A stretch of DNA of 64,000 nt, taken from Isurus oxyrinchus. Its lineage: Eukaryota. The notes under the pieces were generated by a model. The model was not told where the DNA came from and made no database searches. It worked only from the letters and a program-made list of their open reading frames with translations. The position numbers were made by a program, and so were the translations under genes. The DNA is taken from contig JANJGN010000005.1 in the NCBI GenBank assembly GCA_026770705.1, positions 76,012,001 through 76,076,000 on the forward strand, read 5' to 3'. Each line of letters begins with the position of its first letter. Within the stretch, counting starts at the first letter, position 1. Shown here piece after piece: positions 5,430-59,200 of this stretch.

Positions 5430-5870
5430 TCAATGTCATGCCATGGATAGTATGAATATGGTGTGCAGTTCGAATGCAACAGGTATTGTGATTGTGATAA
5501 GTAACAAGAATATGATAGATAGTGTAAATGTGATAAGTAATGTGAGTACGATGTAAGGCTTCAGTGTGTTAGGTGCCATGGTTGTGATTCGTGGTGTGAA
5601 AGTGCTGAAGGTGTAAATATGATCAGTAGGGTAAATATGATGGGTCGTGTGAATGAGATGAGTAGTTTGAACATGATTAATATAAATGTCATGAGTAATG
5701 TGAATGTGATGAATTCTGTCACTGGCTTAAGTTGTATGAATACGATGAATAGTTTGAATATGGTTAGGATGATTTTACTCAGTAATGTGAATGTGATAAA
5801 TGGTGTGAATTTGATGAGTAGGCTCAATGTGATTATGTGAATGTGACAAGTAGCGTAAAACATCATAAAT
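5430..5870. repeat. Degenerate ~18-bp minisatellite (GTGAATGTGATGAGTAAT-like)
   Basis: Recurring GTGAATGTGAT(G/A)AGT motifs. They produce spurious Met/Asn-rich (+) and His/Ile-rich (-) ORFs. Confidence 0.7.
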
Positions 5871-6477
5871 AATTGGGCCTCAACCAAAGTGCTGACTCCA
5901 TACCATATATTTTGTTAAATAGGAAAATTGAACTCATAGCACATTATTCATGCACATCAGACACAGAAGTGTGTTCAAGAGCCTACAATTGTGGAAGCTT
6001 TTCAATTTTGAATGCAAATTATATTGATACCATAAAAATGCAATAAAAGAAACAGGAAATGCAGTGTAGTTCTTAGTGAAGTTGCTTTTTAAAAAGTGCT
6101 CAGAAAATTGCAATGAGAGGCCAGAAAAATGACTTTGTTTTTAGGTTTGTGTAAAAATCTCATGGCAATTTCAAGAGAGCCTCTGAACATGCACAATTGC
6201 AGGAAACTCACACATTGATCTCTATAGCTTGGAACAGGGCAGGTTTCATGGCTAGAAATTCATTTGGGTAGAAGTGTCGATGGACATAAAAAATCTAGAA
6301 GATTTAGACATATTGTAATTATGTGCATGACTCATTTCTGGCCAAAATTCTGTGATCTTTTTGGCTACCTAAATTTCCCATTTACTCATATTTCTGGTAC
6401 AAATATAAAGAAAATTCAAGGCCAATGAGCAGCAGGTCTGTGATTAATAGAATGGGTGTGATGAAAAGTTTCAATGT

Positions 6478-6830
6478 AAGAACATAAGAAATAGGAGCAG
6501 CAGTAAGCCCATCGAGCCTGCTCTGCTATTCAATAAGATCATACGAGATATTTTCCCTCAACTCCAGCTTCCTGCAATATCCTCAAATTCCCTAATTCCG
6601 TAGTACCCAAAAATCTGTCAGTCTTTATCTTGGATATAATCAATAACCAAGCATCCACAGCCCTCTGGCTTAGAGAACACAATATTCCAGATATGGTCTG
6701 AACAAGGGCCTGTAGAATTGCAGTAAGACCTCTTGCTCTTAAAGTTCAATCCCTTTGTATGAGGTCTAACATACCATTTATTTTCTTAATTGCTTGCTAT
6801 ACCTTCTTGTTAGCTTTCTGTGATATTAAT
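6478..6830 (-). mobile_element. CR1 LINE 3' fragment (antisense)
   Basis: Begins AAGAACATAAGAAATAGGAGCAG, the reverse complement of a CR1 3' tail, followed by decayed ORF2 C-terminal sequence. Confidence 0.6.
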
Positions 6831-6859
6831 GCCTTTGTTGAAGGATCTATTGGCTTCAT

Positions 6860-8450
6860 TGTAGCCAACTTTGCTGATGATACAAAGATAGGTAGGAAAA
6901 CAAGTTGTGATATAAAGAGCCTGCAAAGGGATATAGATAGGTTAAGCAAGTGGGAAAAAAATAGCAGAAGGAACATAATATGGGAAAATGTGGGATTGTC
7001 CACTTTTTCAGGAAGAATAGAAAAGCAGAATATTATTTCAATGGAGGGAGACTGCAGAATGCTGTGGTACAGAGGGATCTGGTTGTCCTTGTACATGAAT
7101 TACAAAAAGTTAGCATGCAGATACAGCAAGTAATTAGGAAGGCAGATGGAAGTTGGTCTTTATTGCAAGAGCAACGGAGTATAAAAATAGGGAAGACTTG
7201 CTGCAGTTGTGCAGAGTATTGGAGAGATCATATCTGGAGTACTGCGTACAGTTTTGGTCTCCTTACTGAATGAGGGATATACTTTCATTGGACGAAGTTC
7301 AGCGAAGTTTCCTGGGCTAATCGCTGAGATGAAGGTGTTTGTCTTATGAGGAAAGGTTGAGCAAGTTGGACCTTTATTCATTGGAGTTTAGAAGGATGAC
7401 AGGTAATCTCATTGAAGGATCTAAGAATCTGAGGGGGCTTGGCAGGGTAGATGCTCGAAGGATGGGCTGGAATTTACATGCCCACTGGCCACATTTTCAG
7501 CAAGGGATGAAATTGGCAGCCCACCTGCCCATATGTAAATAAATAATTAGAGGCCAGTTTGGCTTGCTAACAAGCCTATTGATCTGAATAACATGCTGCC
7601 CAACCCAGAACATAGTTGGTGTGGGCAGTCGGATGGGATTGAGCAGGCCAATTTTAAAGGCCTACATGAGAAATGACGGGAAGGAAGGATGGGCACTACA
7701 TTTGGGGGGGTGCCCTCCGTGAATCGGGGGCATTACCCCCTCCCCTCCTTCTGCCCCACCTGCTCGAGAGAACCCAGTTCCCTACACTCCCCCTGCCCCC
7801 TTCCTGGATTCTGGGAAATGTCTCTACCCTAAAACCCCAGAACCGCTTGAGGCAGTCATGATCTTCCTCAGGCCTTCTTCCTGCTATCCCTGCAGTACCC
7901 ACTACTCAACCCTGGTGCTGCCATCAATCACATTGGCTGGCAGCTCCCAAGTGTGAAACTTCCTCCCGAGTGAGGATGCAAGGCCACTGTCCACCAATTT
8001 AGCTCTCTGGCAGCGTGTTTTGGCTGTTGGGTGGGCTGACATGGAGTGGATCAGCTTCTGGCTGACTTTACTTCGCGGGAGGTCGAATAGTCTGCCCCCT
8101 ATAAAATGCAGGCTGATGTTTCCTCTCATGGGGGAATCTAGAAGTAGGGGGCACAAATTAGAAATAAGGAGTTTTCCATTTAAGATAAGATGAAGAGGAA
8201 TTTCTTTTCTCACATGGTACTTAGTCTTTATAAGACTCTTCTATAGAGAATAGTGGAGGCTGGGTCATTGAATATCACCAAGGCTGAGTTAGACAGATTG
8301 TTGATTGAGAAGGGAGTCAAGGGTAATGGGGAACAGGGAGGGAAGTGGAGTCAAGACCACAATCAGATCAGCCATGATCTTATTGAATGGTGGAGCAGGC
8401 CTGATGGGCCAAATGGCCTACTTCTGCCCCTTTCACTTTTAATCTTATGA
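6860..8450 (+). mobile_element. CR1 LINE 3' part, interrupted by a MITE
   Basis: FADDTKIG RT motif (~6870), LQRDIDRL, and SYEERLSKLDLYSLEFRR. 3' UTR ends ~8450. Confidence 0.85.
7464..8098. mobile_element. Harbinger-type MITE inserted in CR1
   Basis: Interrupts CR1 ORF2 between DARRM and MFPLMG. Starts GGGCTGGAATTT and ends with TCTGCCCC-like degenerate TIR. Confidence 0.5.
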
Positions 8451-10834: not shown

Positions 10835-13560
10835 GTGTGGAATCATCCCAGAGTTGCACTAAGTGCAGTAGTGGGAAGTTAAAATGATGTTTTACCCTCC
10901 GGCCGTAATGGTAGCTTTTCATGCCGTATCGTTCCGAACACGCCACATTAATTATGCATTTCCAGGAAACACGCCATTTCCATGGTGGGTGGGCTCTCAT
11001 TCACCCACCGGTCATCACCTCACCGATTCAGCACACCAAGTGTGAGCACACACATCTCAGTGCTTCCAGCCCATGACTGCAGCAAAGAAGACATGACCCT
11101 GAAAGGCAAAATGATTGGAACCCCCAGGTTCAATTATGTGTCCCTCGAGCACCTTTTGGACACAGTGGAGGCCTATGGTGATGTCCTCTACCCTCATTCT
11201 AGCCACAGGATGGGCAGCAACCTCAATAATTTGGCTTGGGAGGCGGTGGTAGTGGTGGTCCGAGCCAAGGCCCTGCAAAAGAGGACAGTCACCCAGTGCC
11301 GCAAGAGGATGAATGATCTCCTCCATTCTGCCAGGGTAAATCACTCTTTCATCACTTTCACCTCACACACTCATAAAACCATCACACATCCACAGGGCCC
11401 TCACTTACTGTTGGTTCAAGGGGCATCACCACATATTCATTTTCCTCATCCTGTCCATTGGACCACTCACCACCCACACATGCCAGGCATACTTATCATC
11501 TGGGCTAGTAGGTGTCCTTTTCACACCCTCCCTTTCTCTATTCATGCAGGACATGCTGGCACACAACAACAGGGAGAGATCACAGACCGGTGGAGAAATG
11601 CCTGAATTCAAGGTCCTCACGGACCTGGAAAACAGAGCCATCCAGCTGGCCAGCAAGGATCTGGACCATTCCTGTGCTAACGGTGAGGTTGACGGTGCTC
11701 TACCAAGTGAGGATCTAGCAGGGCAACATCCATTAGACAACCATGCTGTGAGTGATGTGCCCTCTTTTACAGGCCATTGCCATGCACTAATTATCTCCCC
11801 TTGCTTTTGCAGGCATGTCTGAGAAACAACTGATAGAGTCCCAGCACCTCCAATCAAATCTCAAAGAAAACTCTGAAGAGGAATCTGGAGAAACACTCCT
11901 TAAAGTCCCATTACAGCGCTCAGCCACACCCTCCACCAGCACAGAGACATACACCTCAGTGGGACCTAGCTTTAGAGTAGCCTCGGGATCACAATCTGGT
12001 GAGTACATCACACTGTCTGATCCACAGCAGATGGTGGCAGGGACTTCCCAGGTATCCGGCATTTGGAGGACTGCTGGAGACCAGAAATTTGCTGAGTCCG
12101 AGTTAGATGATGAGCTTCTGGATTCAGTCATGTCACAGTTGCTGGAGCTGCAAAGGCAAGCTAGGGAACATCAGGAAGGGATGTCCGCTGCACTCCTCAG
12201 ATTTCAAGGCACGATGGAGGAGTCCGTTCGCCTTCAGGCTGTAGTGATAGCGCCAGCATGCCAACACACCGAGGTCAACACTGATAGGATGGCAGCCGCC
12301 ATGGAGACCTTCGTCCAGGATGTCACTCCTGCACTGCTGTGCTGGCTCAATTCCATCGCTGGCCATTGTTTACCACCAACAGTGTGTACGTGAGAGAGGT
12401 GCGGGGCAGTTCAATCTCACTCCAGTTACCCATTCTCCTCAAGAAGTCAGCCAGGGACCCTTCAGCACCCATAATGAGGAGGATCAACAGGTGTACCACC
12501 TGGGGCTATCCACCCTGGTTACTCTGGGAGTGTTTGGCTCATCCGAATACCCTCTTCCTGTAATCCCAGCAGCTCCAGCTCCACAGGCCGAGAAGGGTGC
12601 CACTGCCACAAAGCAGGTCCCTGAAAGCAGGCTGGGGCCCTCTAGGCCTCAGCCCTCCAGAGGACTTCCACCAAGGTCATCACAGACAGGGCGTAGCAGT
12701 TAGCAGACTGCCCCACCTCCGCTGTGGATGGCTGGGGAATACCAAGATGTAGCAGCAGGGTTAGGAAAGTTAAGAAGATATATTTGTACAGCCTGGGCAT
12801 GTGTCTTAATCACTTGTACATATTGTTCACTATTGTCAATCAACTCCCAAGAATGTCTCCCTGCCTATGGCTCCTTGTTCTCAGAGCAGTGTTCATGTCA
12901 CTCAGATGTGAAACCTTTCTGCACAAGATAAAGGTAGGTGTCTCAGTCCAGGGCCTCTTCCTTGTGGTTTGTATAGCCTTCAGACTAAAGTGATGGTCTG
13001 GCCTCTCACTTTCTGGACACATTACTGATGCCTGCATCTGTGAAACCTGCCAGAATGGAGTGGTCAGGCGTCAAAAGGTGCCATCATTCTCTCTGTGTGC
13101 TCACAGCACATTTAAGCTGGGCTGGCCCCCATTTCTTCAGCATCTGTGACCAGTGACTCTGCTCCTAAGTGCGTCAGGTGCTGAAGGCGGACAAAGAATC
13201 ATATATTTTTAAAGTTTCATGATTTGACCCTGATCATAGAGCTCAAGTGAGCTGCCATGGTCAGACAGGAGTCTGACATCCTCAGAGGCTATGTGAAGAT
13301 CTGTGGAGTGTCCTCAGTGCATGTCGTCATCATCCTCCTGCAATTGAGCGACTTTTAGGGCCTTCACTGCGTCTCCATGACAGGTGCCTTATCACAAAGG
13401 GTAAGTGCGTTGCTATAAGCCAGACTAGAGTCATGCGTTCATCGATGCAATGTTAGGATCTATGGTGTCTCCCCACTGCATGTCATCCTCATCCTCCACA
13501 AAACTAGCAGCTATGAGGGCCTCCCGAGCACACCTGTCTCATCTGGCCAGTGTCACGGCC
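10835..13560 (+). mobile_element. PIF/Harbinger element, left part (Myb/SANT gene kept, transposase mostly lost)
   Basis: Left end 10835-11040 aligns by eye with 56273-56470, and 12735-13560 aligns with 56482-57330. Contains the Myb/SANT gene. Confidence 0.75.
11093..12703 (+). pseudogene. Harbinger Myb/SANT (MSANTD-like) DNA-binding gene, 3 exons, one frameshift
   Basis: Trihelix motifs PRF...LLDTVE...AWEAV...KRTVTQCRKRMNDL. In-phase GT-AG introns at 11336-11549 (phase 0) and 11707-11812 (phase 1). Frame shifts near 12360, and the alternate frame runs to 12703. Confidence 0.7.
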
Positions 13561-15157
13561 TCATCTCCACCATTGTCACCTCCTCACACTCATCCCTTCA
13601 TCTTTATCCCAGGCCGGGGAGGGGTGGGGCACATCAGTCCACTCTCAGTCGTGCCCAGTACATTGTGCGAAGAGCACGGTCAGTGCCTTACTCACGGCAG
13701 TCTGGGGGGTTTCTGGCATTGTACTCAGCCACAGATGGCACAGTCACTGTCAGGGGAGGCATCTGCAACCTATAGGTTGGGAACAGATAGTATAGGGTCG
13801 GGCACTCAATGGTCTCATGGTGGGGAGGTCCCGATAGATCCCAGTACGTTAAGTTTCAAGATGGGGAGGACCATCACGTCAAACAACATAGGGATAACAA
13901 AGGTATATCTGCCACAATAACAATGGGATCAAGGAGAGTAATCGGAGGGAGGGAAACCTGAACGTTTTGCTCCTTCAGGACGATGGGAGGGATTTCCATG
14001 GTCTGGTAATAAAACCTGAGGACCACCATCTTGGAACCTGAAGCAATGGAGCAGTGAAAAATGAAACTTCAATCAATGCTGCTGGGGAGGACGACTTCTG
14101 GAAGGAATGTTTCACAGCACAGGGCAGCCAATTAAACAGGCACCCATCTGAAATCTGTATTCCCAAATGAGGAGGAATGCACAGCTGAGGCATGTGAGGC
14201 GATAACGAGCCATCAATCTAAAAGTGCGTTCATACAAGATTAATTCCGATTAGTTCTAATTATCAATATCTGTGCAGTAACCCTTTACAACAATCTGGTT
14301 GGGGCTTGGCCTAAATAGCCAAGTGGTGATGGTACTGGGTTTGTAACCCCAAGATCGAGAGTTCAAATCTCACAGTGGCAAACAATGTAACTTCATCTGA
14401 AACAGATGGAAATGGGTTTGTACTCGAAAGAGTATCAAGAGTTCAAATCTCACAATGGCAAACTATGAAACAATGTAACTTCATCTGAATAAACAGATGG
14501 AAACGGGTTTGTACTCGAAAGAGTATGAAGAGTTCAAATCTCACAATGGCAAACTATGAAACAATGTAACTTCATCTGAAACAGATGGAAACGGGTTTGT
14601 GCTTGAAAGAGTATCAGGAGTTCAAATCTCACAATGGCCAACTATGAAACAATGTAACTTCATCTGAATAGGAACAGATGGAAATGTGTTTTGGCCTAAA
14701 TGGCCAAGTGGTTATGGTCCTGGGTTTGTAACCCCAAGATCAAGAGTTCAAATCTCACAATGGCAAACAATGTAAATTCATCTGAAACAGATGGAAACGG
14801 GTTTGTACTCGAAAGAAATCAAGAGTTCAAATCTCACAATGGCAAACTATGAAACAACATCTGAAACAGATGGAAATGGGTTTGTACTCGAAAGAGTTTC
14901 TGGGTTTGTAACCCCAAGATCAAGAGTTCAAATCTCACAATGGCAAACTATGAAACAATGTAACTTCATCTGAAACAGATGGAAACGTGTTTGTACTCGA
15001 AAGAGTCACAGGTGCAAAGCCACTTTGAGCTTGGCCTAAAATAGCCAAGTGGTTATGGTACTGGGTTTGTAACCCCAAGATCAAGAGTTCAAATCTCACA
15101 ATGGCAAACTATGAAACAATGTAACTTCATCTGAAAAACAGATTGAAGACTAATTTT

Positions 15158-15288
15158 GGCTTGGCCTAAATAGCCAAGTGGTTATGGTACTGGGTTTGTA
15201 ACCCCAAGATCAAGAGTTCAAATCTCACAATGGCAAACAATGTGGCTTCATCTGAAACAGATGGAAACGGGTTTGTGCTCAAAAGAGT
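15158..15288 (+). mobile_element. Representative tRNA-Thr(UGU)-derived SINE-like monomer
   Basis: Pol III A box TAGCCAAGTGG, anticodon arm CTGGG-TTTGTAA-CCCCA, B box GAGTTCAAATC. 3' hairpins TCATCTG-AAA-CAGATGG and, in most units, CTC-GAAA-GAG. The acceptor stem is poorly paired, so it is not a functional tRNA. Confidence 0.8.
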
Positions 15289-15816
15289 ATCAAGAGTTCA
15301 AATCTCACAATGGCAAACTATGAAACAATGTAACTTCATCTGAAAAACAGATGGAAATGTTTTGCTTGGCCTAAACAGCCAAGTGGTTATGGTACTGGGT
15401 TTGTAACCCCAAGATCAAGAGTTCAAATCTCACAATGGCAAACTATGAAACAATGTAACTTCATCTGAAACAGATGGAAATGGGTTTGTACTTGAAAGAG
15501 TTACAAGCTTTAGCTTGGCCTAAATAGCCAAGTGGTTATGGTACTGGGTTTGTAACCCCAAGATCAAGAGTTCAAATCTCACAATGGCAAAACTATGAAA
15601 CAATGTAACTTCATCTGAAACGGATTGTGCTCGAAAGAGTATCAAGAGTTCAAATCTCACAATGGCAAACTATGAAACAATGTAACTTCATCTGAACCAG
15701 ATGGAAACGGGTTTGTGCTTGAAAGAGTATCAAGAGTTCAAATCTCACAATGGCAAACTATGAAACAATGTAACTTCATCTGAAACAGATGGACACGGGT
15801 TTGTGCTCGAAAGAGT

Positions 15817-15937
15817 GCCTACGGCCATACTAGTCTGAAAACGCCCGATCTCGTCTGATCTCGGAAGCTAAGCAGACTTAGGCCTGGTTAGTACTTGGAT
15901 GGGAGACCGCCTGGGAATACCAGGTGCAGTAGGCTTT
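15817..15937 (+). rRNA. 5S rRNA, full mature length (probable retrocopy)
   Basis: GCCTACGGCCATAC...GCCCGATCTCGTCTGATCTCGGAAGCTAAGC...TTAGTACTTGGATGGGAGACCGCCTGGGAATACCAGGTGCAGTAGGCTTT. Starts at +1 and ends at UUU, with no 5S spacer DNA on either side. Confidence 0.97.
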
Positions 15938-16677
15938 AGCTTGGCCTAAATAGCCAAGTGGTTATGGTACTGGGTTTGTAACCCCAAGATCGAGAGTTCA
16001 AATCTCACAATGGCAAACTATGAAACAATGTAACTTCATCTGAAACAGATGGACACGGGTTTGTGCTCGAAAGAGTATCAAGAGTTCAAATCTCACAATG
16101 GCAAACTATGAAACAATGTAACTTCATCTGAAACAGATGGAAACGGGTTTGTACTCGAAAGAAATCAAGGGTTCAAATCTCACAATGGCAAACTATGAAA
16201 CAATGTAACTTCATCTGAATAGGAACAGATGGAAACATGTTTGTAGTCAAAAGAGTTACATAGCCTGGTATAATCTGTCTGGCTTTTGGGCTTGGCATAA
16301 ATAGCCAAGTGGTTATGGTACTGGGCTTGTAACCCCAAGATCAAGAGTTCAAATCTCACAATGGCAAACTATGAAACAATGTAACTTCATCTGAATAGGA
16401 ACAGATGGAAACGTGTTTGTACTCGAAAGAGTTACAAGCTACACTGGGAGAATTTATAAATAATCAAGAGTTCAAATCTCACAATGGCAAATTATGAAAC
16501 AATATAACTTCATCTGAAACAGATGGAAATGGGTTTGTACTCGAAAGAGTTACACCCAAGTCAACCTGATTCTTGGCTTGGCCTAAATAGCCAAGTGGTT
16601 ATGGCAATGGGTTTGTAACCCCAAGATCAAGAGTTCAAATCTCACAATAGGAAACAATGTAACTTCATCTGAAACAG

Positions 16678-17745
16678 ATGGAAACAGGTTTGTACTCAAA
16701 ACAGTTACTGTGGTTACCAAGGAAACATTTGTTACCCCTCCGTCCTTTTCAGTGGTTGGCGGAGAGGAGGGCTGTGGCCACAGGGGTGACCAGGATCGGG
16801 GACATGCTGGGTGGCGGAGGACTGGGCTGGATGCTCCCGCGGGAGTTGGCGCGATGCGCGTCTGTGAGTGTCCAGGTCGCAGCCAATGCCATCCAAGACC
16901 TGAGAACGGTTGTGCTCGGACCCGACGTTATTTTGGGTCTTGAGGTGGCCCAGGCGCGTGGTGGTCTTCCGTCTGAACGTTCCCCTGTTCGGACAGAATT
17001 CCACATTGGCCCCAAGCCCCGAACCCTCCCTCGGGTGCTGGTGCCCCGCAATATGAGCCGCCTCGGGGACATGCCCTCCCTGCCTTTTGGCACGGCAAAG
17101 AGGGGCTTTTTGTACAGACTGCTGCTGCACACCTTCCATTTTCTTGCCCTTGTCCGCCGCCCGGACATGCCCTGGCGTGCCTTGTTGCCGTCCGGTGGTG
17201 GAGGCCCCCGATGGGAGGCCCTCTATGGAGGTGTCCTCCCCCTTTCTATCGGGGACCTGGGTTGGAGGGTGTTGCATGCATCAGTCCCCTATAATAAGAG
17301 GATGCATAGGTTCACAGACTCTCAGGACACGTGCCCTTTTTGCGGTCTTATGGAGTCCGTGGACCATGTATACATAGGGTGTTGTAGGCTGCACTCCCTT
17401 TTTAGTTATTTGAAAAACCTTTTATTGATGTTTTGTTTGCACTTCAGCCCCACACTCCTGATCTATGGGCACCCGGTGCGGAAGGGGGTCGGGAAGGAGG
17501 AGGACCTCCTCGTGAACCTGCTCCTGGGCCTGGCCAAGTTGGCCATTAACAGGTCCAGGCAGCAGGCGATCGACGGGGGAGTCCCGCCCGATTGTTTGTC
17601 CCTCTTCCGCGGCTACGTTCGCTGCCGGATGTCCCTGGAGAGGGAGCACGCGGTGTCTGCTGGCACTCTCGAGGCCTTCCATGCTCGGTTGGCACCGCGG
17701 GGACTGGGGTGTTTTGTTGACCCCTTTAATCACATTTTGATTTAA
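16678..17745 (+). CDS. Open frame covering Tx1 ORF2 C-terminal (zf-RVT-like CCHC) domain; first ~20 codons come from the SINE unit and junction filler
   Basis: 355-aa ORF with no stops and a C-X2-C-X7-H-X4-C motif. It lacks APE and RT domains, so it is not autonomous. Confidence 0.55.
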   Translation: METGLYSKQLLWLPRKHLLPLRPFQWLAERRAVATGVTRIGDMLGGGGLGWMLPRELARCASVSVQVAANAIQDLRTVVLGPDVILGLEVAQARGGLPSERSPVRTEFHIGPKPRTLPRVLVPRNMSRLGDMPSLPFGTAKRGFLYRLLLHTFHFLALVRRPDMPWRALLPSGGGGPRWEALYGGVLPLSIGDLGWRVLHASVPYNKRMHRFTDSQDTCPFCGLMESVDHVYIGCCRLHSLFSYLKNLLLMFCLHFSPTLLIYGHPVRKGVGKEEDLLVNLLLGLAKLAINRSRQQAIDGGVPPDCLSLFRGYVRCRMSLEREHAVSAGTLEAFHARLAPRGLGCFVDPFNHILI

Positions 17746-17854
17746 AGTTTGTAAGTTTCCTTTAAACTTTGTTCTTGGTTTTACAGCTGACCTGAATTAG
17801 GGGCTGTGCCTGATTTATCCCAATTTTGTTGATTTGGTTTTCATATAAAAGATC
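16737..17854 (+). mobile_element. 5'-truncated Tx1-clade (L1 group) non-LTR retrotransposon
   Basis: GC/CpG-rich. Uninterrupted ORF2 C-terminus with DLGWRVLH, zinc knuckle CPFCGLMESVDHVYIGC and LLLGLAKLAI. Short T-rich 3' UTR ending TATAAAAGA. Confidence 0.88.
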
Positions 17855-19439
17855 ATCAAGAGTTCAAATCTCACAATGGCAAACTATGAAACAATGTAAC
17901 TTCATCTGAAACAGATGGAAACGGGTTTGTACTCGAAAGAAATCAAGAGTACAAATCTCACAATGGCAAACTATGTAACAATGTAACTTCATCTGAATAG
18001 GAACAGATGGAAATGGGTTTGTACTCAAAAGAGTTACAAGCTACACTGGGAGAATTTATAAATCAAGAGTTCAAATCTCACAATGGCAAACTATGAAACA
18101 ATGTAACTTCATCTGAAACAGATGGAAATGGGTTTGTACTCAAAAGATTTAAAAGATTATCAAGAGTTCAAATCTCACAAAGGCAAACTATGAAACAATG
18201 TAACTTCATCTGAATAGGAACAGATGGAAACAGGTTTGTACTTGAAAGAGTTACAAAACAAATCAAGAGTTCAAATCTCACAATGGCAAACTATGATGCT
18301 TGTCCTGGTGAAGTCTTTAATAGACAAAAATTTTTAAATAGCCAAGTGGTTATGGTACTGGCCTTGTAACCCCAAGATCAAGAGTTCAAATCTCACAATG
18401 GCAAACTATGAAACAATGTAACTTCATCTGAATAGGAACAGATGGAAACATGTTTGTACTTGAAAGAGTTACAACAATCTGGTTATTCCCCTCTGTGATA
18501 GCAACTCCAAAAACAAGTGGGTACCTGATAAGCAGGAGAAGCCTTTTGGGAACACTCCCTCAGAATCTCATCGCTGCCACATTCAGGGATGAGAATCCTA
18601 GGCCCCCAAAAAGAATCTAATGGCCTCACAGAATATCTACCCTCATGTGTTTTGCAAAGGATGTAGTCATTCAATCCACTGAATGAGTAATGTGTAAACT
18701 GGAATAAATGCAGGCCAGCCATGTGCCTGGCCAAGTCCATCTCTTAGCAATAGGTTTACTGAGATGGGGGAAAGGCAGGGGTGGGGTTTGTGGGGTGGAG
18801 GAGAAGGATACTGTGACACAGAGTGTTCATAGCCATGGCCACGATTGCATTGGCTAACAGGTGTCTGTACTGTAAGCAAGCCCCTAAAGCCACAGTCACT
18901 CACTAGTCAGTGACAGAAAAAGAACCTTCAGAGGCTGCTAACTGATATTTTTATTTCAGCGATCCAATAGGCAGGAGAACATGAAGAAAATGGAGGCTGC
19001 ATTTAACGCTGTCTGCATCATCACAAGGCAGGCAGGAGTGTGCACGATTTCTGAGTATGACCTTTTAGATTGCAGGCCCTAAGGGATGACAGAGAGTACA
19101 TGGAGATGCGCATCTATATCTCTCCTAGTGCATCGTATCTTCACTTTTCCACAATGCAGATTAGCCGAGGGACTACATGAGCCTCCATCTTACACAGCCG
19201 AGAATGAACATCATTTATAATTGCAATGCTTGTCAACAAGATGTCTCGCACAAGTACGTTTTAAGGGTGACTCATGACTGATGTTGGAGAACTGAGAAGG
19301 AACACACTCTGTGATGAGATGGCTTCACACAACGTGGACAAGAGTCACGTGATGTGAGATCAGCAATAAGTGGGAGGAGGCAACATAGTGTGACCTCTAA
19401 TAGATCACAACACAACTCAGCATTCAGAGGAGGAGTGCA

Positions 19440-20120
19440 CAAGAGGAGATGTGGAATGGGTCCAATTGTATTTACATAAGTGGAAAGCATACACATTTGG
19501 TGAACGTCCATGCCATCATTGTACTCCTATTATTTTTGATCCTCCTAACCCTGCCGCTATGTCTAGGTGCTTCCCTGACATCCACAGCAGAGGTAGATGC
19601 AGCCTTCTGACTTCTATGCCCTGCTGTCTGTGATGACTTTAGCAGACGTCCTGTGGAGGGCCAAAACTTGGAGGTTCTCAGACAGCTTTGGGTCTCCTGC
19701 TGTTGGGCAGGTGCAACCTTCTTGGCTTGTGGAGCTGGAGGTGATGGGATCACAGGTAGAGGGGATTGGCATCAGAAGGACACTCCCAGGGTCACCTGGA
19801 CACTCCCAGAGACACCTGGCAGATGGCCCTGGCGTGTCCAGCTACTGGTCCTTGTCCCTATGGGTGCCCGAGGGGCCCTGATTGACTCCCTAAAGAGAGG
19901 AGGCACCTGGAGTGAGATCGAGGTGTCCTGGCCCCCTCTCACATAGCCGCTGATAGATCCCACCAATGCCTAACAATGATGAAGTGCAACTCCTGGTGCA
20001 GTCGAAAGTCTCCATGGCAGCCACCATCCTATCAATGTTGACCTCCGTGCCCTAGCATGCCAGTGCCAGACTGAACGTGGAGGGACTCTTCCATCATATG
20101 TTGCAATCTGTGGAATCCAT
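19440..20120 (-). pseudogene. Harbinger Myb/SANT gene last-exon remnant
   Basis: Minus-strand peptides (PPAPQAKKVAPAQQQ, TEVNIDRMVAAMET-like) resemble 12260-12760. Confidence 0.55.
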
Positions 20121-26849: not shown

Positions 26850-28139
26850 AGTGAGGAATCTTTTTTGGGCCTGCAGGTTTCAGGAAGCCTTCCCTTAGAC
26901 TGGGAATAGGAACTGAACTCTCCATTGGAGGCACCTCCTCTGAGGAAGAAGGGAGGGCTAGAAAGGAGAGGAGGCCAGGAGTGTACATTCAGCCTCCAGG
27001 GGAGCCACCTTTGGGAGGACAGACCTAGACACAAGGGGCACAGGGCCAAGAGGTAGACCAAGGTGGAAGGGGTCGCAGAGGATGCCACTATCCTGCTGCC
27101 AGGGTTTACAGGCAGCGAAGCAGCTACCTCAAAATGTCTGAGGTGCAGTGCCAAAGGAGGCTCCGTCTCTCAAGGGAGACAGTTAACAGTATCTGTCAGA
27201 TGATTGGGCCTGAGATCTCCCCTAACTTTTTGGTGGACACCCCATACCAGTGGCTCTAAAGGTCACAGCTGCCCTCAACTTCAATGCCTCTGGCTCCTTC
27301 CAGGGTCAATGGGTGATCTTTGCGGTGTCTCCCAATCAGCTGTCCACACTTGTGTCAAGCAGGTTACAGATGCTCTGTTCAGGCGTGAAATGACCTTCAT
27401 CCACTTCCATTGGGACCAGGAAAGCCAGACACTGTGAGCCAGAGGCTTCACGGCCATTGCTGGCTTCCCCCGCATCCAGGGTGCAATAGATTGTGCATAC
27501 ATGGCCATCAAGGCACCAGCAGGTGAGCCCGGTGCCTTCGTCAACAGGAAGGGCTTCCACTCCATGAACATGCAGATAGTGTGTGACCACAGGATGCTGA
27601 TTTTACAAGTCTGTGCAAGGTACCCTGGCAGCTCCTACGATGCCTACATCCTCAGACACTCCCAGGTGCCGGGGCTCTTCAGTGCTCCGGCTCGGCTGGA
27701 TGGTTGGCTTCTGGGTGACAAGGGCTATCCCCTCAGAAGGTGGCTCATGAAGCCTCTATGCCATCCAATATCAGAGGCTGAGCAGCTGTGTAACAGGAAC
27801 CACACCTCCACAAGGGCTGTGGTGGAGAGAGCCATCGGTCTTCTCAAGATGCACTTCCGACGTCTGGAACGCTCAGGGGGAGCACTCCAGTACTTCCCAG
27901 ATCGTGTGTCGCTGATAGTGGTTGCATGCTGCCCTCTCCACAATCTTGTACTGGAAAGGGGGGTTGCTGTGGATGATGAAGACATCGACGTAGTTGTTGT
28001 GGATGCACACGATGAGTCCAGCAGTGAGTCTGAGGATGAGCACGCACAGGGAAATGCTGGGGGGGTAGATGCTGACCCGTGCATATTCCAGGGAGGCAGG
28101 GACACCCGGGAGGCTTTAATCCAAAGAACCTTCAGCTAG
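26850..28139 (+). pseudogene. HARBI1-like DDE transposase (disrupted 5' half, 212-aa intact C-terminal ORF)
   Basis: GAIDC, NRKGFHSMNMQIVCD, YPGSSYD, LLGDKGY and VVERAIGLLK motifs. In-frame TGA at 27435 and upstream frameshifts. Confidence 0.9.
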
Positions 28140-31299: not shown

Positions 31300-33900
31300 G
31301 AGTGTTACTGATTCTGACAGGGAGGACAGAGAGGTTTTTTTTGCCTTATGTATAAAGCCTCCTTTTGGGTTGAAAACTGACAGGGACATGGAGCTGAAGT
31401 TGCAGAGAAGGGAAGCTGTGCACAGAGGATTTTCCACAGAAGGCCTTACACAGCTAAGTTTTTCAGGGAGCACACCTCACTTGCACCCCAGCCAGGAACA
31501 GTGCCATTCCCCAGGGAGGTGATCACAAAACTGTGTCAACAGACCTAGCCTCATAGCAAGGACGAGGACGAGGACGAGGTTTCCAGTCTACTAAAGTGCA
31601 GTTAGTGAGCCGGCCAGGCAGGAGGGTAGGGCAGGGTACACTGTGCCCCTCGTTTTTCAGGTGATTGCTTTGCTGCCCTCCTGAGGAGGTCGCAGCACGG
31701 CGGGAGGTCCTCGTACCTCAGGACGGGAGGAGGAGGTCTGCTCACATGACCAAACGTGGCTGGGAGGAGGTGGCGGAGGTGGTGAGCTCCCACGATGTGT
31801 TGCGGTGCACATGGATCTAGTGCTGCAAGTGCTTTAATGACCTGTTACGCTCAGGAAGGGCGAGTACCATGTTGGCAAGGACTGCCTGTAGTCATAAAGT
31901 TCACTTTCTCTCTCAACTTCTTTGCAGCCAGGTCCTTATAGGTGAGAGCAAGTTACATTGCCAACATTTCCCAGTTTGCCATCCATCTTTGTACCTGAGA
32001 GGTGCCATAGGTCCTATATGAACAGAGAGGAGTCCGCATTATCTCTCGAAGCAGAAAGAGCATAGGATCATAAGAAATAGGAGCAGGAGTAGACTACACA
32101 GCTCATTAAGCCTGCTCCACCATTCAATACTCTCATGGCTGTTCTTGGGCATCAACTCCAAAGAAACAGAAGGATGGGCATGTGGCGGAGGGATTCCAAT
32201 GGTGTAGGGAGCCATTGACTGTATGCATGTGGCTCTGCCGGTTCTTACCTCAAAGGTTTCTGATCTATTAAAGTGCAGTTGGTGAATAATCATATACAGA
32301 CCATCATGTGAATGAAAGCTTACTATCCTGACAGCCATGACACCTTCATCCTGAGGCAGTCTGCTGTGATCTCTGTGCCACCATGAAGAACCAGAACCTG
32401 ATTGTTTGGAGAGAAAGGCAGACGATCCCTCAACCATCTGACGATGACGTGATCCATCCTGCCGGCTATAATGGAGAAGACCATCAGCATTCTCAAACAA
32501 CAGTTCTGCTGCCTGGACCCCTCCAACATTTGATGAAGTGTGTCCAAATTTCCTTCATAACCTTGCGATTATGAGGGCACAGATTTTGCCACCATGGTGG
32601 TCAGTCACTTCAGCAGGCAGAGGAGGCCCCTTTTTTCTGGGCAGATTGTCTGTGAGTGCATACTGAGTATTCGGTTTCCTTAAGACATCGCCATCTTTCA
32701 ATCCTTTCTTTTATTTATTGGATGTGGGCATCACTGGCTAGGCCAGCATTTATTGCCCATCCTAATTGTTCTTGTTTAGAGGGCATTTAAGAGTAAACCA
32801 CATTGCTGTGGGTCTGGATTCACATGTAGCCAGACCAGGTAAGGATGATTGAAGCAGATAGGTTTTTAAGGCAATCAGCAATGGTTTCATTCGATTTTTA
32901 ATTCCAGATTTTTATTGAGTTCAAGTTCCACCAATTGCCATGGCAGGATTTGAACCCAGATTCCTCAGATCATTATGCTGGGTTCTGGATTACTAGTCCA
33001 GTGACAATACCACTACACCATCGCCTCCCTATTTGCTGTGAATCATCACAGAGTCCTCTAGGACAAAATCTTGAACTAAAAGGAATCAACAAAAAATATT
33101 TCCAGAACAACTTTATATAGTACATTAATACATACAAACCTGAATTATTCATTTGATAGTAGGTTAGTGCTCCACTGAAACCCTCTGGTGTGGTGCGTCA
33201 GTAATCCTAGAAGACAGATTACTGGACTGCCTCGAGTGCCTGCAAGCTTCCGTGAGCATTGAGATCTACAGCCATGATAATAGCAGTCTGAGCCTGTATA
33301 TGGCAGCAAACATGAATCTCATGAACTCAGTCTAAGCTTCCATTGCAGCACTGAGACATAGTGTGGGTTCCCCCAATTCTGCAGTGGAAAGCGAGATATC
33401 AGCCATCAGAAGGTGTATCATGTGTGAGTCCACAGTGTTGCCATGAAGTTGGCCCACCACTCCTACGCTGGAAAGCATGGGCTCCAAGCTTTGCATGATG
33501 CTGTGTACCACTTTAGAGCTAGGGTCCTCCATGCTCCTTGACAGTGGCAACAAGTGATCTGACAGGCCAGCCAATGCACCAATCATCTCTGTGTGCATTC
33601 TTATCAGCATTCTCCTGTAAACTACTCGATCAAAGTCCTCAACTTAGCACCCTATAACAGAACCCATATCCAACCTGGTACTCCAGTAAGATGGCACATG
33701 AACAATCTTTTCCGCCTGGCTTAGCTGCAGCCTATTCGTGCTAGGTGACTCACCACGTGCAGATCCCAACTCTATACTGTTCTCTGAGATATGTGCAGTA
33801 GTAGTATCTGAAATGATGGTTCTATTTGTCAGATCAAGTGAGGGTGCTTCCTTATCAGAGGTCTCTAGCAGCTCTTGTCCTTCCTCAAGAGGCCACAGGG
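31300..33900. mobile_element. Old, heavily decayed Harbinger (transposase + strand ~31350-32650, Myb remnant - strand ~33160-33900) with nested inserts
   Basis: GAIDCMHVAL at ~32207 and SHDTFILRQS at ~32332. Nested inserts are an inverted Myb exon copy, a CR1 tail and a SINE. Confidence 0.6.
32710..33029 (-). mobile_element. tRNA-derived SINE
   Basis: Reverse complement starts GGGAGGCGATGGTGTAGTGG (A box) and has GGGTTCAAATCC (B box). The 3' tail is shared with LINE ends at ~22405-22450. Confidence 0.7.
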
Positions 33901-52400: not shown

Positions 52401-54556
52401 ATAGCACGTCGAACGAATACATAACTATTAACACACACAAGGGCCTCTATGAGCACACTCATTTACCCTTTGAAGTTCCATCAGCATGCGCTAGTTTCCA
52501 GAGAACAATGGAGATTCGTTCGCAAGGACTTCCCCGAGTGGTAATATATTTGGATGACGTTCTTACCTCTGGGTGAACCGAGACTGAACCTGGAGGAGGT
52601 GCTAAGAAAGCTCATGGAAGCTGGGATATGGTTAAAGAAGGAAAAATGCACCTTTCACGCACTAGAAGTTACTTACCTGGGTCACAGGGTGGATGCCATG
52701 TGTTTATATCCGGTAGAAGATAAGGTTCAGGCAATAAAAGATGCAACATCACCATCCAACATAACAGAACTCAAGTCCTTCCTGGGTATGATCAACTACT
52801 ATAGCTGCTCCTTATCTGACCTATCAAATGTTTTGGCACCATTACACTCGCTGTTAAAAATGGGTTCACAACATGAAGAAGCCTTTGTGAAAACAAATAA
52901 ATTGCTGCATTCGTCGTCTTTATTGGTACACCACGACCCATCGAAAGATCTGATATTAACATGTGATACCTCTCCTTATGGTGTAGGAGCCATGTTATCA
53001 CGTAAAATGGAAAATGGATCAGAAAGGCCCATTGGCTATGCCTCGAGAACCCTTTCCCAAGCTGAGAAGGGCTATTCTCAGTTAGAGAAAGAAGGATTAT
53101 CAGTAGTGTTCAGTGTAAAAAAAATTCACCAGTACCTACCATGGATGACATTTTATCATTGTGTTGGACCATAAACCATTAATGGGATTATCAGTGATGA
53201 CAAGGCCATTCTGCCAATAGCATCAGCAAGAATACAACGCTGGGCTCTGACATTATTTACATATGAGTATACTTTTATGTAATGCCCTGATTTACACATT
53301 GCAATGCAGTTGCACTCAGTCATCTCCTAATACCAGATAGTATTGTAAATATTCCCATATTTACAAGAATTAGTGACAGGCATTAACAGCCTGGTCAGGC
53401 ACTGTCTCCACTGTCAGCAACAACAGCAAGTTACCTGTTTCAGCTCCCCTACATCTGTGGGAGTGGCCTGGTTGACTCTGTGTTCGACTACATATTGATT
53501 ATGTAGGACTATTCTTAGGTACCGTGTTCTTGTTAATTATGGATGCACATTCAAAATGGATGTACAAAGTCAAATCACCAACGTGGACCATAAATATCGA
53601 GAAGCTACGTCAATGTTTCAGCATACATGGCCTACCTGTAATTGTCGTTTCAAATAATGGTACAGCCTTTAGCAGCGCTGAGTTTCAGAAATTTATGTAT
53701 CTGAATAGAATCTGACATATTAAAGCAGTCCTTTTGCAGCCCTCATTGAATGTCTAGCTGAGAGAGAAGTACAAACTTAAATCTGGTATGAAAATATTTA
53801 TCAGAAGGCACTCTGGAATTTCGACTTTCCTGGTTTCTCTTCAATTATCATACAATGCCATATTTGACTACAGGTTCAACATCGTTGGAGTTATTAATGA
53901 AACGTTGTCTGCGTACACGTTTACACTTGGTGTTTACGAATTTAGAGGGGAAGGTAGTACAGAACCAGAGTAATTAAAAATTTAACTAGAGTATACACAG
54001 TAAGGCTTGCACATTCACTGTAGGTGACACGGAATACGTGGAAAGTTTCGGCAGTGGGCCCTGCTGGGCTCCAGGAGCCATTGTATCAGAGGCTGGTCCA
54101 TTTTCATTCTAAGTGCAAGTGGGAGATAGAATCATCTGTAATCACATGGATCATATCCATGCCAGAGAGAAATTCCAAAAATTAACTGATCAACCTATGA
54201 TTAATGTTGAACCATCGACTCCTGAGGTATGTGGTCGACCTAGAATAGATATTCCAGATGTTTCAGAGGAGTTGCCATATCCTGAACTGTCTAATTCCAA
54301 TGACGTGTCTCATAGTGCTGTCAATCCTGTTCAGGAATCTCCAGTGATAGAGCTACGGCACCCTAGTATATGAAGAGCACCTCAGAGACTTGATTTATAA
54401 TCACCTGAAATTGTATGTATGCTTGTCGGGTTGTTTACATGTTTTTCTGTAAAGGGTAATTTAAAAAAAAATTAAAGGGGGAGGAAATGTGGTAACTGGA
54501 TGTATAGTCACTCCCTCTTGTCGATCATGGGTCATGTGATGTACTGCAGTGGCTTC

Positions 54557-56272: not shown

Positions 56273-59200
56273 GGGCAGGATCATCTCAGATTTGCATTAA
56301 GTGCGGTAGCATATGGTAAAACGATGTTTTACCTGCCGGCTGTAATGACAGCTTTTCATGCCGTTTCATTCCAAACCCACTACATTAATAATGCATTCCT
56401 GGGAAATACACCATTTTGGGCAGGCTCTGATTTGCCCACTACACTATCACCTTGCCGCTTCAGCACGCCGGGCACCATATTGGGGAGCACCAAGATGTAG
56501 CGGCAGGATTAGGAAAGTTAAGAAGGTGTAGTTGTACAACCCGGGCACAGGTGTTAATCACTTGTACATACTTTTCACTATTGTCAATCAACTCCCAAGA
56601 GTGTCTCCATGCCTATGGCTCCTTGTTCTGATGAGCAGAGTCGGTTTCATTCAGATGTGAAGCCTTTCTGTACAAGATAAAGGCAGGTGTTTCAGTCCAG
56701 GGCCTCTTCCCTGTGCTTTGTGCAGCCTTCAGACCAAATTAATGGTCCGGCCTCACGCTCCCTGGACGCATTACTGCTGCACATGGACGGTGCTTGTCAT
56801 TGCTCCAGAATGTTGTGGGCAGGTGTCACAGCACCTTTAAGGTGGGGCTGGCCCCTATCTCTTCAGCATCTGTGACCAGTGATGCTGTGCTACTGAAGGG
56901 GTCAGGTGCTGAAGCCAGACAAATGATCAGATGCTTTTAAAGTTTCTTGATGCGTCTCTATGATGATCACAGGGCGCAAGCGAGCTGCCCTTGGCCAGAC
57001 AGGAATCAGACATTCTCAGTGGCTATATTAAGATTTATGGAGTGTCCTCATTGCATGTCGTCATCATCCTGCAATCAAGTGACTTGATTGAGGCTTCCAC
57101 TGCATCTCCATGACAGGAGCATTATCACAGAGGGTATGTGCGTTACCATAAGTCAGACTGGACTCAAACTTCATTAGATGCAAGGCAAGGATCTATGGTG
57201 TCTCCACATTGTATGTTGTCATCACCCTCCACAAATCTAGCAGCTATGAGGGCCTCTCAAGCATGCCTGCCTCATACGTTCACTTTGCTGCAGTCTGAGG
57301 CTGCTGCAAGGGTGTCATCAGCCACGGCCTCTGTGAGTAGCCCTCGTCCCCGAGAAGCCATCCCTGCAGCTCCTATGGACCCTGGAAGGCGTCAGGGATC
57401 TGTGACCGACTGAGAATGTAGGAGTCGTGCACACTCCCTGCAAACCGTATGCAGACCTGCAGGATGCATTTCTGGTGGTCATGCACAATCAGTGCATGGA
57501 ATACGGTGCAGTTGATATAGTTGACTCTGTGTTGCGATGGAGATCTGAGTACCATGTGAATGCAGTCAATGGCACCCTTCACCTGTCGGAAACCCGAGAC
57601 CTGGGCAAATCCAATTGGTCTTGCATCCTGGCTGTCCTGGTCCTGGGTGAAATGTACAAAGTTGTGTGCCCTCGTGAAGATAGATCTGTGACCTCATGGG
57701 TGCCTTTGTGGGTGGAGGCTTGTGATATCCCACAGAGGTCTGTAGAGCCCTGAAAGGAGCCACTGGCTTAAAAATTGAACACCACAATCACTTCATGGCC
57801 ACTGGCAGTGGATGCCCTCCATGTCCCTGTGGTACCAAGTTCTGCAGTAGCAGCAGATGGGACTGGCCAGTTCCCTAGACATGTGCAGTCTTCGGCAACA
57901 CTGGTTCTCAGTCATCTGCAGGAATGAAAGGCGGCATCTGTAGACCCCGGCTATAGCTAGGTGCCAACGGCTCACTGTGGCTTTTTGGCAGTGTTTACGG
58001 GAGCCCCAGACACCTCTTCTTCCTGAGGGTGCTACTGCTCCCTCCGCACAGCCAGATGCCTCCGTCTCTCTATTCTCAGTTGCTTCACTCTCTGTAAGCC
58101 ACAAGATCACCAGGCTCCATGATCCTGACATACTCCTCCTGCAGGATGAAGGAGAAAGAGAGATATATCGGTTAGCATGGGTGTACTAAGAACCTGCCTC
58201 GATTAAGTCTGAAGGCCCCTTAACACATCCCAGAGAGTGCTGGCCACTACTTGGATGGCCAGAGATTAGTGCGTTGCTTGGCTGTCCAAAACCCCACCTT
58301 CTTCCGCCTCACTCCACCTGACCGATTGGCAGCAGCTTTGCCCATTGGACTGCATGCTGTGCTCTCAGCTCAGGTGCAGGGCTGCACTGTTAGTTTGAAC
58401 CATGTGGGGGGCTGGTCCAAATCAGGATGCTGACATTGTAAGAGGCTACGTGCACCTTCACCAGTGACTGCTCCATGGCCAGCTTTAGCAAGGAGATTGT
58501 ACAGCATGTCCAGTCGCCCAATTGTTCGGCAGTCCACTAAAACACTCATTGCTTTGCCGTCTGTGCCTGAGATGTCAAACGCTCTTGAGCACTTGTTGGC
58601 ACTTTGATGCCTCTGCGTTGCTTGAGTTAGCAGATAAGCTAGCAGCCAGACTTCAATCATGTCAAAAATAAAAATAAAAATACCTGGAAAAATGCCCAAC
58701 CGCCTCCTCTTCACCATGGATATCCAATCCCTCTACACCTCCATCCCATACCAGGATGGTCTGAGGGCTCTCCGCTTCTTCCTTGAACAGAGGCCCGAAT
58801 AATCCCCCTCTACCACTACACTCCTCTGTCTGGCTGAACCTGTTCTCACACTGAACAATTTCTCCTTAAACTCCTCTCACGTCCTCCAAATAAAAGGTGT
58901 GGCTATGGGTACCTGCATGGGCCCCAGTTATCCTTGTCTCTTTATGGGGTATGTGGAACATTCCTTATTCCAGTCCTACTCCGGCCCCCTTCCACAACTC
59001 CTTCTCCGGTACATTGATGATTACTTCAGTGCTGCTTCATGCTCTCCTCTGGACCTGGAAAAATTTATTAATTTTGCTTCCAATTTCCACCCCTCCATAA
59101 TTTCACATGGTCCATCTCGGACACTTCCCTTCCTTGACCTCTCTGTCTCAATTTCTGGTGATAGTCAGTTCACCAACATTCATTACAAGCCTACCGACTC

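Follow-up and report, generated by a model that had tools for sequence, protein, structure and literature searches.

Crocodilian genomes hold the short interspersed element (SINE) SINEU-3 together with the long interspersed elements (LINEs) Tx1-Mar and Tx1-9_AMi, for which sequential insertion into the 5′ target-site duplication (TSD) has been described (Kojima 2015, PMC4494074), and nearly half of the copies of the jerboa SINE Dip are reported to stand in multimers of up to eight (PMC10702118). Here we analyze a stretch of 64,000 nucleotides from the shark Isurus oxyrinchus (assembly GCA_026770705.1, contig JANJGN010000005.1, positions 76,012,001 to 76,076,000 of the forward strand; hereafter the window), in which a 4.2-kb insertion combines SINE units, a 5S rRNA copy and a piece of a Tx1 LINE between two copies of one TSD. 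The insertion is a chain of DNA copies of many RNAs, including a young tRNA-derived repeat with foreign tails, 5S and the Tx1 piece. We consider it probable that the array is a multi-template retro-insertion which arose at one target site in the course of one or a few integrations, likely made by a Tx1-clade reverse transcriptase (RT) that jumped between templates at least 12 times. An earlier note, made from the letters of the window alone, had read it as a self-growing landing pad whose unique spacers form a record reminiscent of CRISPR (clustered regularly interspaced short palindromic repeats).

The insertion and its parts are the following (positions in the window):
14285..14300 (+): 5′ target-site duplication, followed by GGG that is missing from the empty site; 15 nt if counted from 14286, the first T being the SINE's last base
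14304..18469 (+): SINE array, 26 segments of a 138-nt tRNA-Thr-like tailless SINE
15817..15937 (+): 5S rRNA copy, full length plus 3′ TT (Rfam)
16164..16289 (+): SINE tail and putative 3′ trailer, source locus L165 on C21
16433..16462 (+): putative trailer, source locus L133/L163 on C2
16551..16575 (+): putative trailer, source locus L246 on C4, TSD plus flank ending in TTCTT
16706..16734 (+): putative trailer starting with TAC, no match among the extracted loci (genome-wide search not made)
16735..17854 (+): 5′-truncated Tx1 LINE, end of ORF2 (open reading frame 2) with zf-RVT plus 3′ untranslated region, joined to SINE position 51
18035..18061 (+): second copy of the C2-derived putative trailer, joined to ATCAAG
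18148..18158 (+): Tx1 3′ end alone (last 11 nt), the second Tx1 3′ end in the array
18469..18484 (+): 3′ target-site duplication, its TAC(AA) start matching the SINE RNA 3′ end

All 26 SINE segments share one orientation; 11 start in the head (unit positions 1-32) and 15 at or near position 51 (ATCAAGAG). The 5S copy matches the Rfam 5S model over 1-120/120 at 15817-15935, its +1 adjoins a SINE tail, and one extra A stands between its 3′ TT and the next SINE head. The Tx1 piece corresponds to positions ~5817-6936 of a 6.9-kb natural copy and is ~97% identical to full-length copies. Together, the 11 headed starts, the 5S copy and the Tx1 piece imply at least 13 template 5′ ends, and the array thus holds copies of at least 13 different RNAs. 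No rare variant (0/14) is common to more than one unit of the array, all being private to a single unit; the distance between its units is 4.2% versus 5.1% for random pairs, and no higher-order block repeats were found in it. The co-oriented composite described by the earlier note, with a full 5S copy and a Tx1 3′ piece inside one direct repeat, is therefore real.

The 16-mer TTACAACAATCTGGTT that encloses the array occurs in the window only at 14285-14300 and 18469-18484, giving a TSD length of 15-16 nt. Among up to 3000 random 30-nt window pairs, taken as a chance control, none shared a stretch of 15 nt or more, the longest being 10. A paralog 1.6 Mb off (L112), whose 5′ flank matches at 99% over 302 nt, carries one 16-mer with contiguous flanks, and hence the array is an insertion with a true TSD, as had been proposed; 18 more distant copies of the host repeat are likewise empty at the site. 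L112 aligns with window positions 13999-14300 and 18469-19677 as a short inverted paralog (99% on the 5′ side), and it appears to be a recent small duplication or conversion that predates the insertion or was made without it. In a related organism, contigs from three runs cover 14160-14300 and continue with 42, 148 and 42 letters unlike the SINE head, which suggests that its site is empty; the paralog could account for those contigs. Inner copies of the outer TSD are missing from the window array (0 found), and its target context agrees with the preferred hexamer TGCAAC at 1-2 of 6 positions.

In the 5.0 Gb of genome searched, an exact 25-mer of the unit occurs at least 29,241 times; the first 100 places group into 41 clusters, from which ~12,000 loci may be extrapolated. 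The first 20 of the 41 listed clusters were taken by position with ~700-nt flanks, sizes being lower bounds, and 12 of these 20 loci are multimers (mean ~3 units, maximum 8). Loci chosen by identity, a size-biased sample, include arrays of 21 to more than 40 units. The window array is thus one long member of a genome-wide class, with the same pattern at thousands of sites. The unit head is tRNA-like with A and B boxes (Rfam tRNA 30 bits, gathering 29), its anticodon loop UUGUAA being read as Thr-UGU. Together with the high dispersed copy number with TSDs and a 3′ end shared with a LINE, this places the unit among tRNA-derived SINEs (SINE2), apparently as a young dispersed family. A TSD was called automatically in 52/85 closed arrays, 34 of the 52 TSDs being 14-15 nt long; 27 start with TAC and 5 with ATC. 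Arrays differ in their load of rare variants (Kruskal p=0.007), a difference compatible with a similar age for the units within each array.

A ribozyme or other structured RNA within the unit was considered and rejected, Rfam returning tRNA and 5S only; relative to shuffles, folding is no more stable for the whole unit (z -1.1) and only modestly more stable for the tail (z -2.3 to -2.7). Two independent arrays stand back to back on opposite strands ~100-200 nt apart at L149 and L150, each with its own TSD, and L022 shows a similar arrangement ~640 nt apart. A second recurrent target, TACAGCTCTAGT, lies in another repeat (L169, L177, L195, L244), and a 5S-SINE chimera was seen there three times.

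The spacers between the units had been called unique. Three of the ~10 window spacers were searched genome-wide, and each (3/3) equals the TSD and adjoining 3′ flank of a SINE locus on another chromosome (C2, C21 or C4); by this comparison the spacers would be 3′ read-through tails, or trailers, of other SINE loci. Nor are they all unique, as the C2-derived spacer occurs twice in the array and has 12 genome matches, the other two having one match elsewhere each. The first 15 nt of the C2 trailer (16433..16462) are the TSD at L133/L163, and it ends at the ATCA of its source; 8 of 10 other full copies stop at or next to that ATCA and continue into a new target or SINE position 51. Its second copy in the window is joined in a different register onto ATCAAG, with a different tail haplotype upstream. 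The C21 trailer comprises the TSD and flank of L165 up to its T-run, and its SINE tail shares the L165 haplotype (119A, 120T, 128G, 131A and an ATAGG insert), of which 128G is rare; L165 carries two changes at 66-67 that are missing from the window copy. The C4 trailer, from L246, stops at TTCTT. Stops at T-runs of the source loci would be an indirect sign of Pol III transcription of the SINE. No match was found in the extracted loci for the window spacers at 14997-15028, 15144, 15353, 15502, 16706 and 18297, for which a genome-wide search was not made. Other arrays of the family carry U3 and tRNAs with flanks as cargo (isotypes judged by eye). At L020:300-1232, three copies resembling the small nucleolar RNA U3 alternate with SINE units.

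The two junction classes described for the window array hold across the SINE family. After a spacer, 254/295 segments begin at the head and 23/295 at position 51, and 47/156 spacers before heads, versus 1/28 before position 51, have a TTT run no more than 4 nt from the joint. The 56 junctions from 5S to a SINE head (several being multiples at one locus) have variable, G/A-rich linkers of 0-5 nt, and 20 of the 27 5S copies examined start at position 4 or earlier. Minimal TSD-5S-SINE-TSD chimeras stand at five loci (L169, L173, L185, L192, L194), and these must be single events. Head joints with oligo-T ends and short variable linkers are the signature expected of end-to-end jumping; work on R2 reportedly concerns jumping of this sort. 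The joints between a tail and position 51 follow another rule: with 127G in the tail, the next letters are ATC 160 times and TAC 4 times, and with 127A they are TAC 243 times and ATC 41 times. Most of these joints were hence inherited from multimeric source RNAs, and ATC targets were entered at the internal joint. Targets starting with TTCA or TAAC likewise enter the SINE at its internal TTCA or TAAC (L152, L153, L157).

That the array might be a 5S ribosomal DNA (rDNA) repeat unit, or the product of 5S targeting, was rejected: the exact junction of a SINE tail with 5S +1 is found only in the window array, and 5S flanks differ at every locus. The 5S copy sits within the TSD as cargo, with non-rDNA flanks.

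The putative partner is a LINE of ~6.9 kb with two ORFs. ORF2 combines an APE endonuclease (Exo_endo_phos) with RVT_1 and is 49% identical over 99% to Xenopus Tx1 (YTX2_XENLA); zf-CCHC in ORF1 is a weak match below cut-off, and the protein matches of highest identity come from a ray and a shark. By these features the partner would belong to the Tx1 clade. Among the top 30 Tx1 3′ ends, 30/30 join ATCA without poly(A), and 24/30 then run through the full SINE 51-138; the top 30 5′ ends all (30/30) open with SINE 51-62 and are preceded by a SINE tail or head or by another Tx1. A rarer second type of 3′ end closes with the SINE's own last 12 nt, ACTC(G)AAAGAGT, at TACA targets (4/74 strict, 4/74 looser), and represents the classic shared LINE-SINE tail. 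SINE and Tx1 thus have no poly(A) tail, possess a common 3′ end, and are joined to targets at TAC/ATC microhomology.

The favoured target is TGCAAC/TACATCTTCTTAAC (TGCAAC/TACA, the slash marking the putative nick), which lies downstream of a Harbinger transposase and holds many arrays. In the first 30 of 567 exact matches to this site, SINE or young Tx1 occupies 3, and older Tx1-like ends occupy 2. Most insertions, that of the window included, are at other TAC/ATC sites, so that a fixed repeat site is targeted with loose specificity. Targeting of small-RNA genes, which the earlier note had named for some Tx1-clade families, is not supported, the enriched target being a Harbinger site and 5S being cargo. 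The window itself contains decayed Harbinger elements (Myb/SANT and DDE_Tnp_4 pieces) at 10952-13600, 27438-28139 and 56500-58700, and near 12783 and 56531 its minus strand carries two degenerate versions of the preferred target, both empty.

Full-length Tx1 copies stand head to tail with a 7.1-7.4-kb period and SINE segments between them at C2:61.83-61.89 Mb and C4:126.99-127.02 Mb (L110, L099-L102), with 9 and 4 copies listed, respectively. The Tx1 5′ end (L065:901-1000, L081-L110) consists of SINE 51-62 followed by the TSD sequence of the Harbinger target, and the master LINE hence seems to have come out of such a SINE array. This T-rich 7-kb LINE lies behind Pol III (RNA polymerase III) heads. 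Tandem 5′-truncated Tx1 pieces with the same truncation point occur at L047, L201, L056, L073, L075 and L080, with a TSD between them in L047 and L201. Without link to the array, the window also holds an RT-RNase H fragment of a long terminal repeat retroelement (52545-53174) and an ARAGORN call of tRNA-Thr(agt) (32936-33024).

The scheme that we infer for enzyme, nick and timing would run as follows. A Tx1 endonuclease would nick before TAC or ATC (best site TGCAAC/TACA), the other strand being cut 14-15 nt away. On tailless RNAs, the RT may start where the RNA matches the primer end, which would be the terminal GAGU-UACA, the internal GAGU-AUCA of multimeric transcripts, or a place within a trailer. 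At the RNA 5′ end it would add 0-5 untemplated bases and go on to the 3′ end of another RNA, the acceptors being the oligo-U Pol III ends of SINE read-through transcripts, 5S and tRNA, or it may switch by short homology; the finished chain would then be sealed to the target. The arrays themselves would be transcribed, by which multimer blocks and trailers may spread, and at good target sites the regenerated 5′ junction may be primed again, giving TSD-separated modules. Some long arrays are duplicated at the DNA level too. Neither the signature of re-priming nor that of DNA-level duplication is present in the window array.

Serial jumping is favoured by the three traced trailers, the empty paralog, the variable-linker 5S junctions and the TTT runs before heads. 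The missing shared variants and inner TSDs and the poor target context further argue for one or a few integrations and not for a long-lived landing pad. This agrees with the earlier note in that reverse transcription, likely by a Tx1 RT, would have captured Pol III RNAs by template jumps. Several points weigh against it. No TSD was called automatically in 33/85 closed arrays, and 26 segments lie far in the tail of the unbiased sample (mean ~3, maximum 8, 20 loci). The two differently registered joins of one trailer onto ATCAAG indicate that primers ending at position 51 existed; nested re-insertion explains these joins equally well, and homologous sealing would hide its TSD. The genome-wide search covered three of the ~10 window spacers, and jumping by a Tx1 RT is proposed from sequence comparison.

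The alternative that survives best is a landing pad, in which a short founder was re-targeted over generations at an internal or junction ATCA, the complementary DNAs (cDNAs) being sealed by homology to the resident head without an inner TSD. Such nested insertion at the SINE's internal ATCA would account for the 23 foreign spacers that join exactly at position 51, and a handful of short 51-65 remnants of TSD length are found in other arrays; these are rare against the ~250 segments that start at position 51 without a head. L147 and L158 show polarised TSD variants, and later same-site events in the family are indicated by L239, which contains its own terminal haplotype with 35 nt of its TSD and adjoining flank, and by L075, which contains 7 nt of its flank from outside the TSD. 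However, no gradient of age with position is seen along arrays (re-primed p=0.46, others p=0.88), and jumps are required anyway for the head junctions, with their oligo-T ends and variable linkers. Contigs of the related organism appear, indirectly, to be without the whole array rather than a part of it, and the window array has neither inner TSDs nor a favourable context. We therefore regard a landing pad, and nested insertion at this locus, as rather unlikely. What stands of the self-growing idea is re-use of sites in other arrays.

In these, the outer TSD is repeated inside 25/60 scored arrays, up to 10 times; at the hotspot, some inner TSDs may be trailers from other hotspot loci. L152 holds ~12 inner TSDs by eye and shares 0/21 rare variants. 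Outside the hotspot, re-priming follows the TGCAAC context (6/7 vs 3/30, p=0.0002, post hoc), in a test that allowed the best of seven registers per array and included four manually added long arrays; when the first nick register was used and hotspot arrays were removed, the result was not significant (p=0.13). The unit in L239, with 19 nt of flank beyond the TSD, is fused to a tRNA 5′ end, and the extra flank in L075 ends at its T-run; such modules of a locus's own flank presuppose that a unit was already present there. L110, L176, L178 and L191 have mini-modules of 11-14 nt between TSD copies. Given the lack of an age gradient, re-priming may occur in bursts. We tentatively hypothesize that the Tx1/SINE pair performs reiterative target-primed reverse transcription (TPRT), re-nicking the regenerated target and capturing the locus's own read-through transcript, so that thousands of sites would keep extending themselves as a record of Pol III RNAs present close to the RT; on present evidence this is possible and somewhat doubtful. 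In its favour we count up to 10 inner TSDs, far above the expectation for independent hits at ~10% site occupancy, as well as the tracking of TGCAAC context, the 11-14-nt mini-cDNAs and the own-flank modules.

Joining at the RNA level would require that pieces were ligated by an RtcB-type activity into a long chimeric RNA, which was then copied once. A study of U6/L1 chimeras names two mechanisms, ligation being one of them (10.1101/2025.02.02.635956), and all pieces having the same orientation and 5S being mostly full-length would agree with it. The variable G/A-rich linkers at the 56 junctions and the microhomology joins inside trailers fit RT better. Primary Pol III transcripts have 5′-triphosphate ends, which are poor ligation substrates. 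We consider this route improbable.

Still less probable is a satellite-type amplification of a short founder array by unequal crossover at the DNA level. This explanation is given for SINE multimers of bivalves (PMC11481361), and repeated blocks with shared rare variants do occur in the long arrays L144/L145, L146, L151 and L075. In the window array, however, the rare variants are private, higher-order blocks are lacking, the units are not periodic and homogenised, and the cargo comes from three other chromosomes. As the earlier note had expected, a crossover origin is largely refuted here. An assembly artefact joining repeat reads, to which the lack of any related-organism contig spanning the junction might point, is hardly credible given the exact TSD with its empty paralog, trailers that stop where their sources have T-runs, and the recurrence of this architecture at many loci.

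Multi-template capture, with at least a dozen templates per site, seems to be how this young vertebrate SINE normally behaves. As each trailer carries the TSD of its source, the arrays offer a readable map of SINE copies that were transcribed and copied together, by which source-gene models and priming rules become testable from sequence alone; if reiterative TPRT is true, each trailer names a locus that was active. A tailless, microhomology-primed and highly jumping Tx1 RT would interest builders of insertion tools or RNA-seq enzymes.

Among the described systems, crocodilian SINEU-3 and its Tx1 partners share several traits with the shark family: a SINE moved by a Tx1 LINE, preference for a DNA-transposon site (Tx1-9_AMi in Harbingers), tandems that sandwich the TSD, 5′ additions by template switching, and Tx1 elements with heads derived from small RNAs. 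As described there, SINEU-3 heads derive from U1/U2, tails are poly(A) and tandems are short (PMC4494074). The shark SINE differs by its tRNA-Thr-like head, the lack of poly(A), microhomology priming, chains of 26 to more than 40 units and foreign trailers. R1 arrays in Drosophila rDNA resemble L152, L158 and L145 in a 14-bp TSD between copies and re-insertion at the 5′ TSD; they are described as a single element in 28S genes, on average two to three per unit in the richest species, without mixed cargo (PMC2718515). Having no inner TSD, the window array differs from R1 and SINEU-type tandems.

LINE-1 chimeras with U6, U3 and 5S are similar in that small RNAs are fused inside one TSD, by template switching or ligation, yet they are reported as two-part and occasional, with 5S often antisense and truncated (10.1101/2025.02.02.635956). 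The shark copies of 5S are in sense orientation and mostly full-length, and chains of several parts are usual. Multimers of bivalve SINEs and of jerboa Dip share the forms TSD-(SINE-TSD)n and TSD-(SINE)n-TSD with 4-15 units; their units are described as near-identical, and they are put down to unequal recombination or left unexplained (PMC11481361, PMC10702118). The shark units, in contrast, are distinct and traceable to separate source loci. The literature searched, with Repbase, Dfam, most subscription journals and supplements outside the search, contains nothing on this SINE family or on chains with traceable trailers, and the family may already be catalogued.

CRISPR arrays have a repeat-spacer look. 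The likeness holds for this architecture, and re-primed arrays moreover regenerate a target copy at the 5′ side. It does not extend to foreign spacers in order of time, as the shark spacers are the family's own trailers and show no age gradient; the array has no cas genes and an irregular period, and no sign of a guide or defence role was seen. The parts thus have precedents in R1, SINEU-3 and L1 chimeras, the scale and the traceable sources seem to be new, and the locus represents known Tx1/SINE behaviour in a new form rather than a CRISPR-like system.

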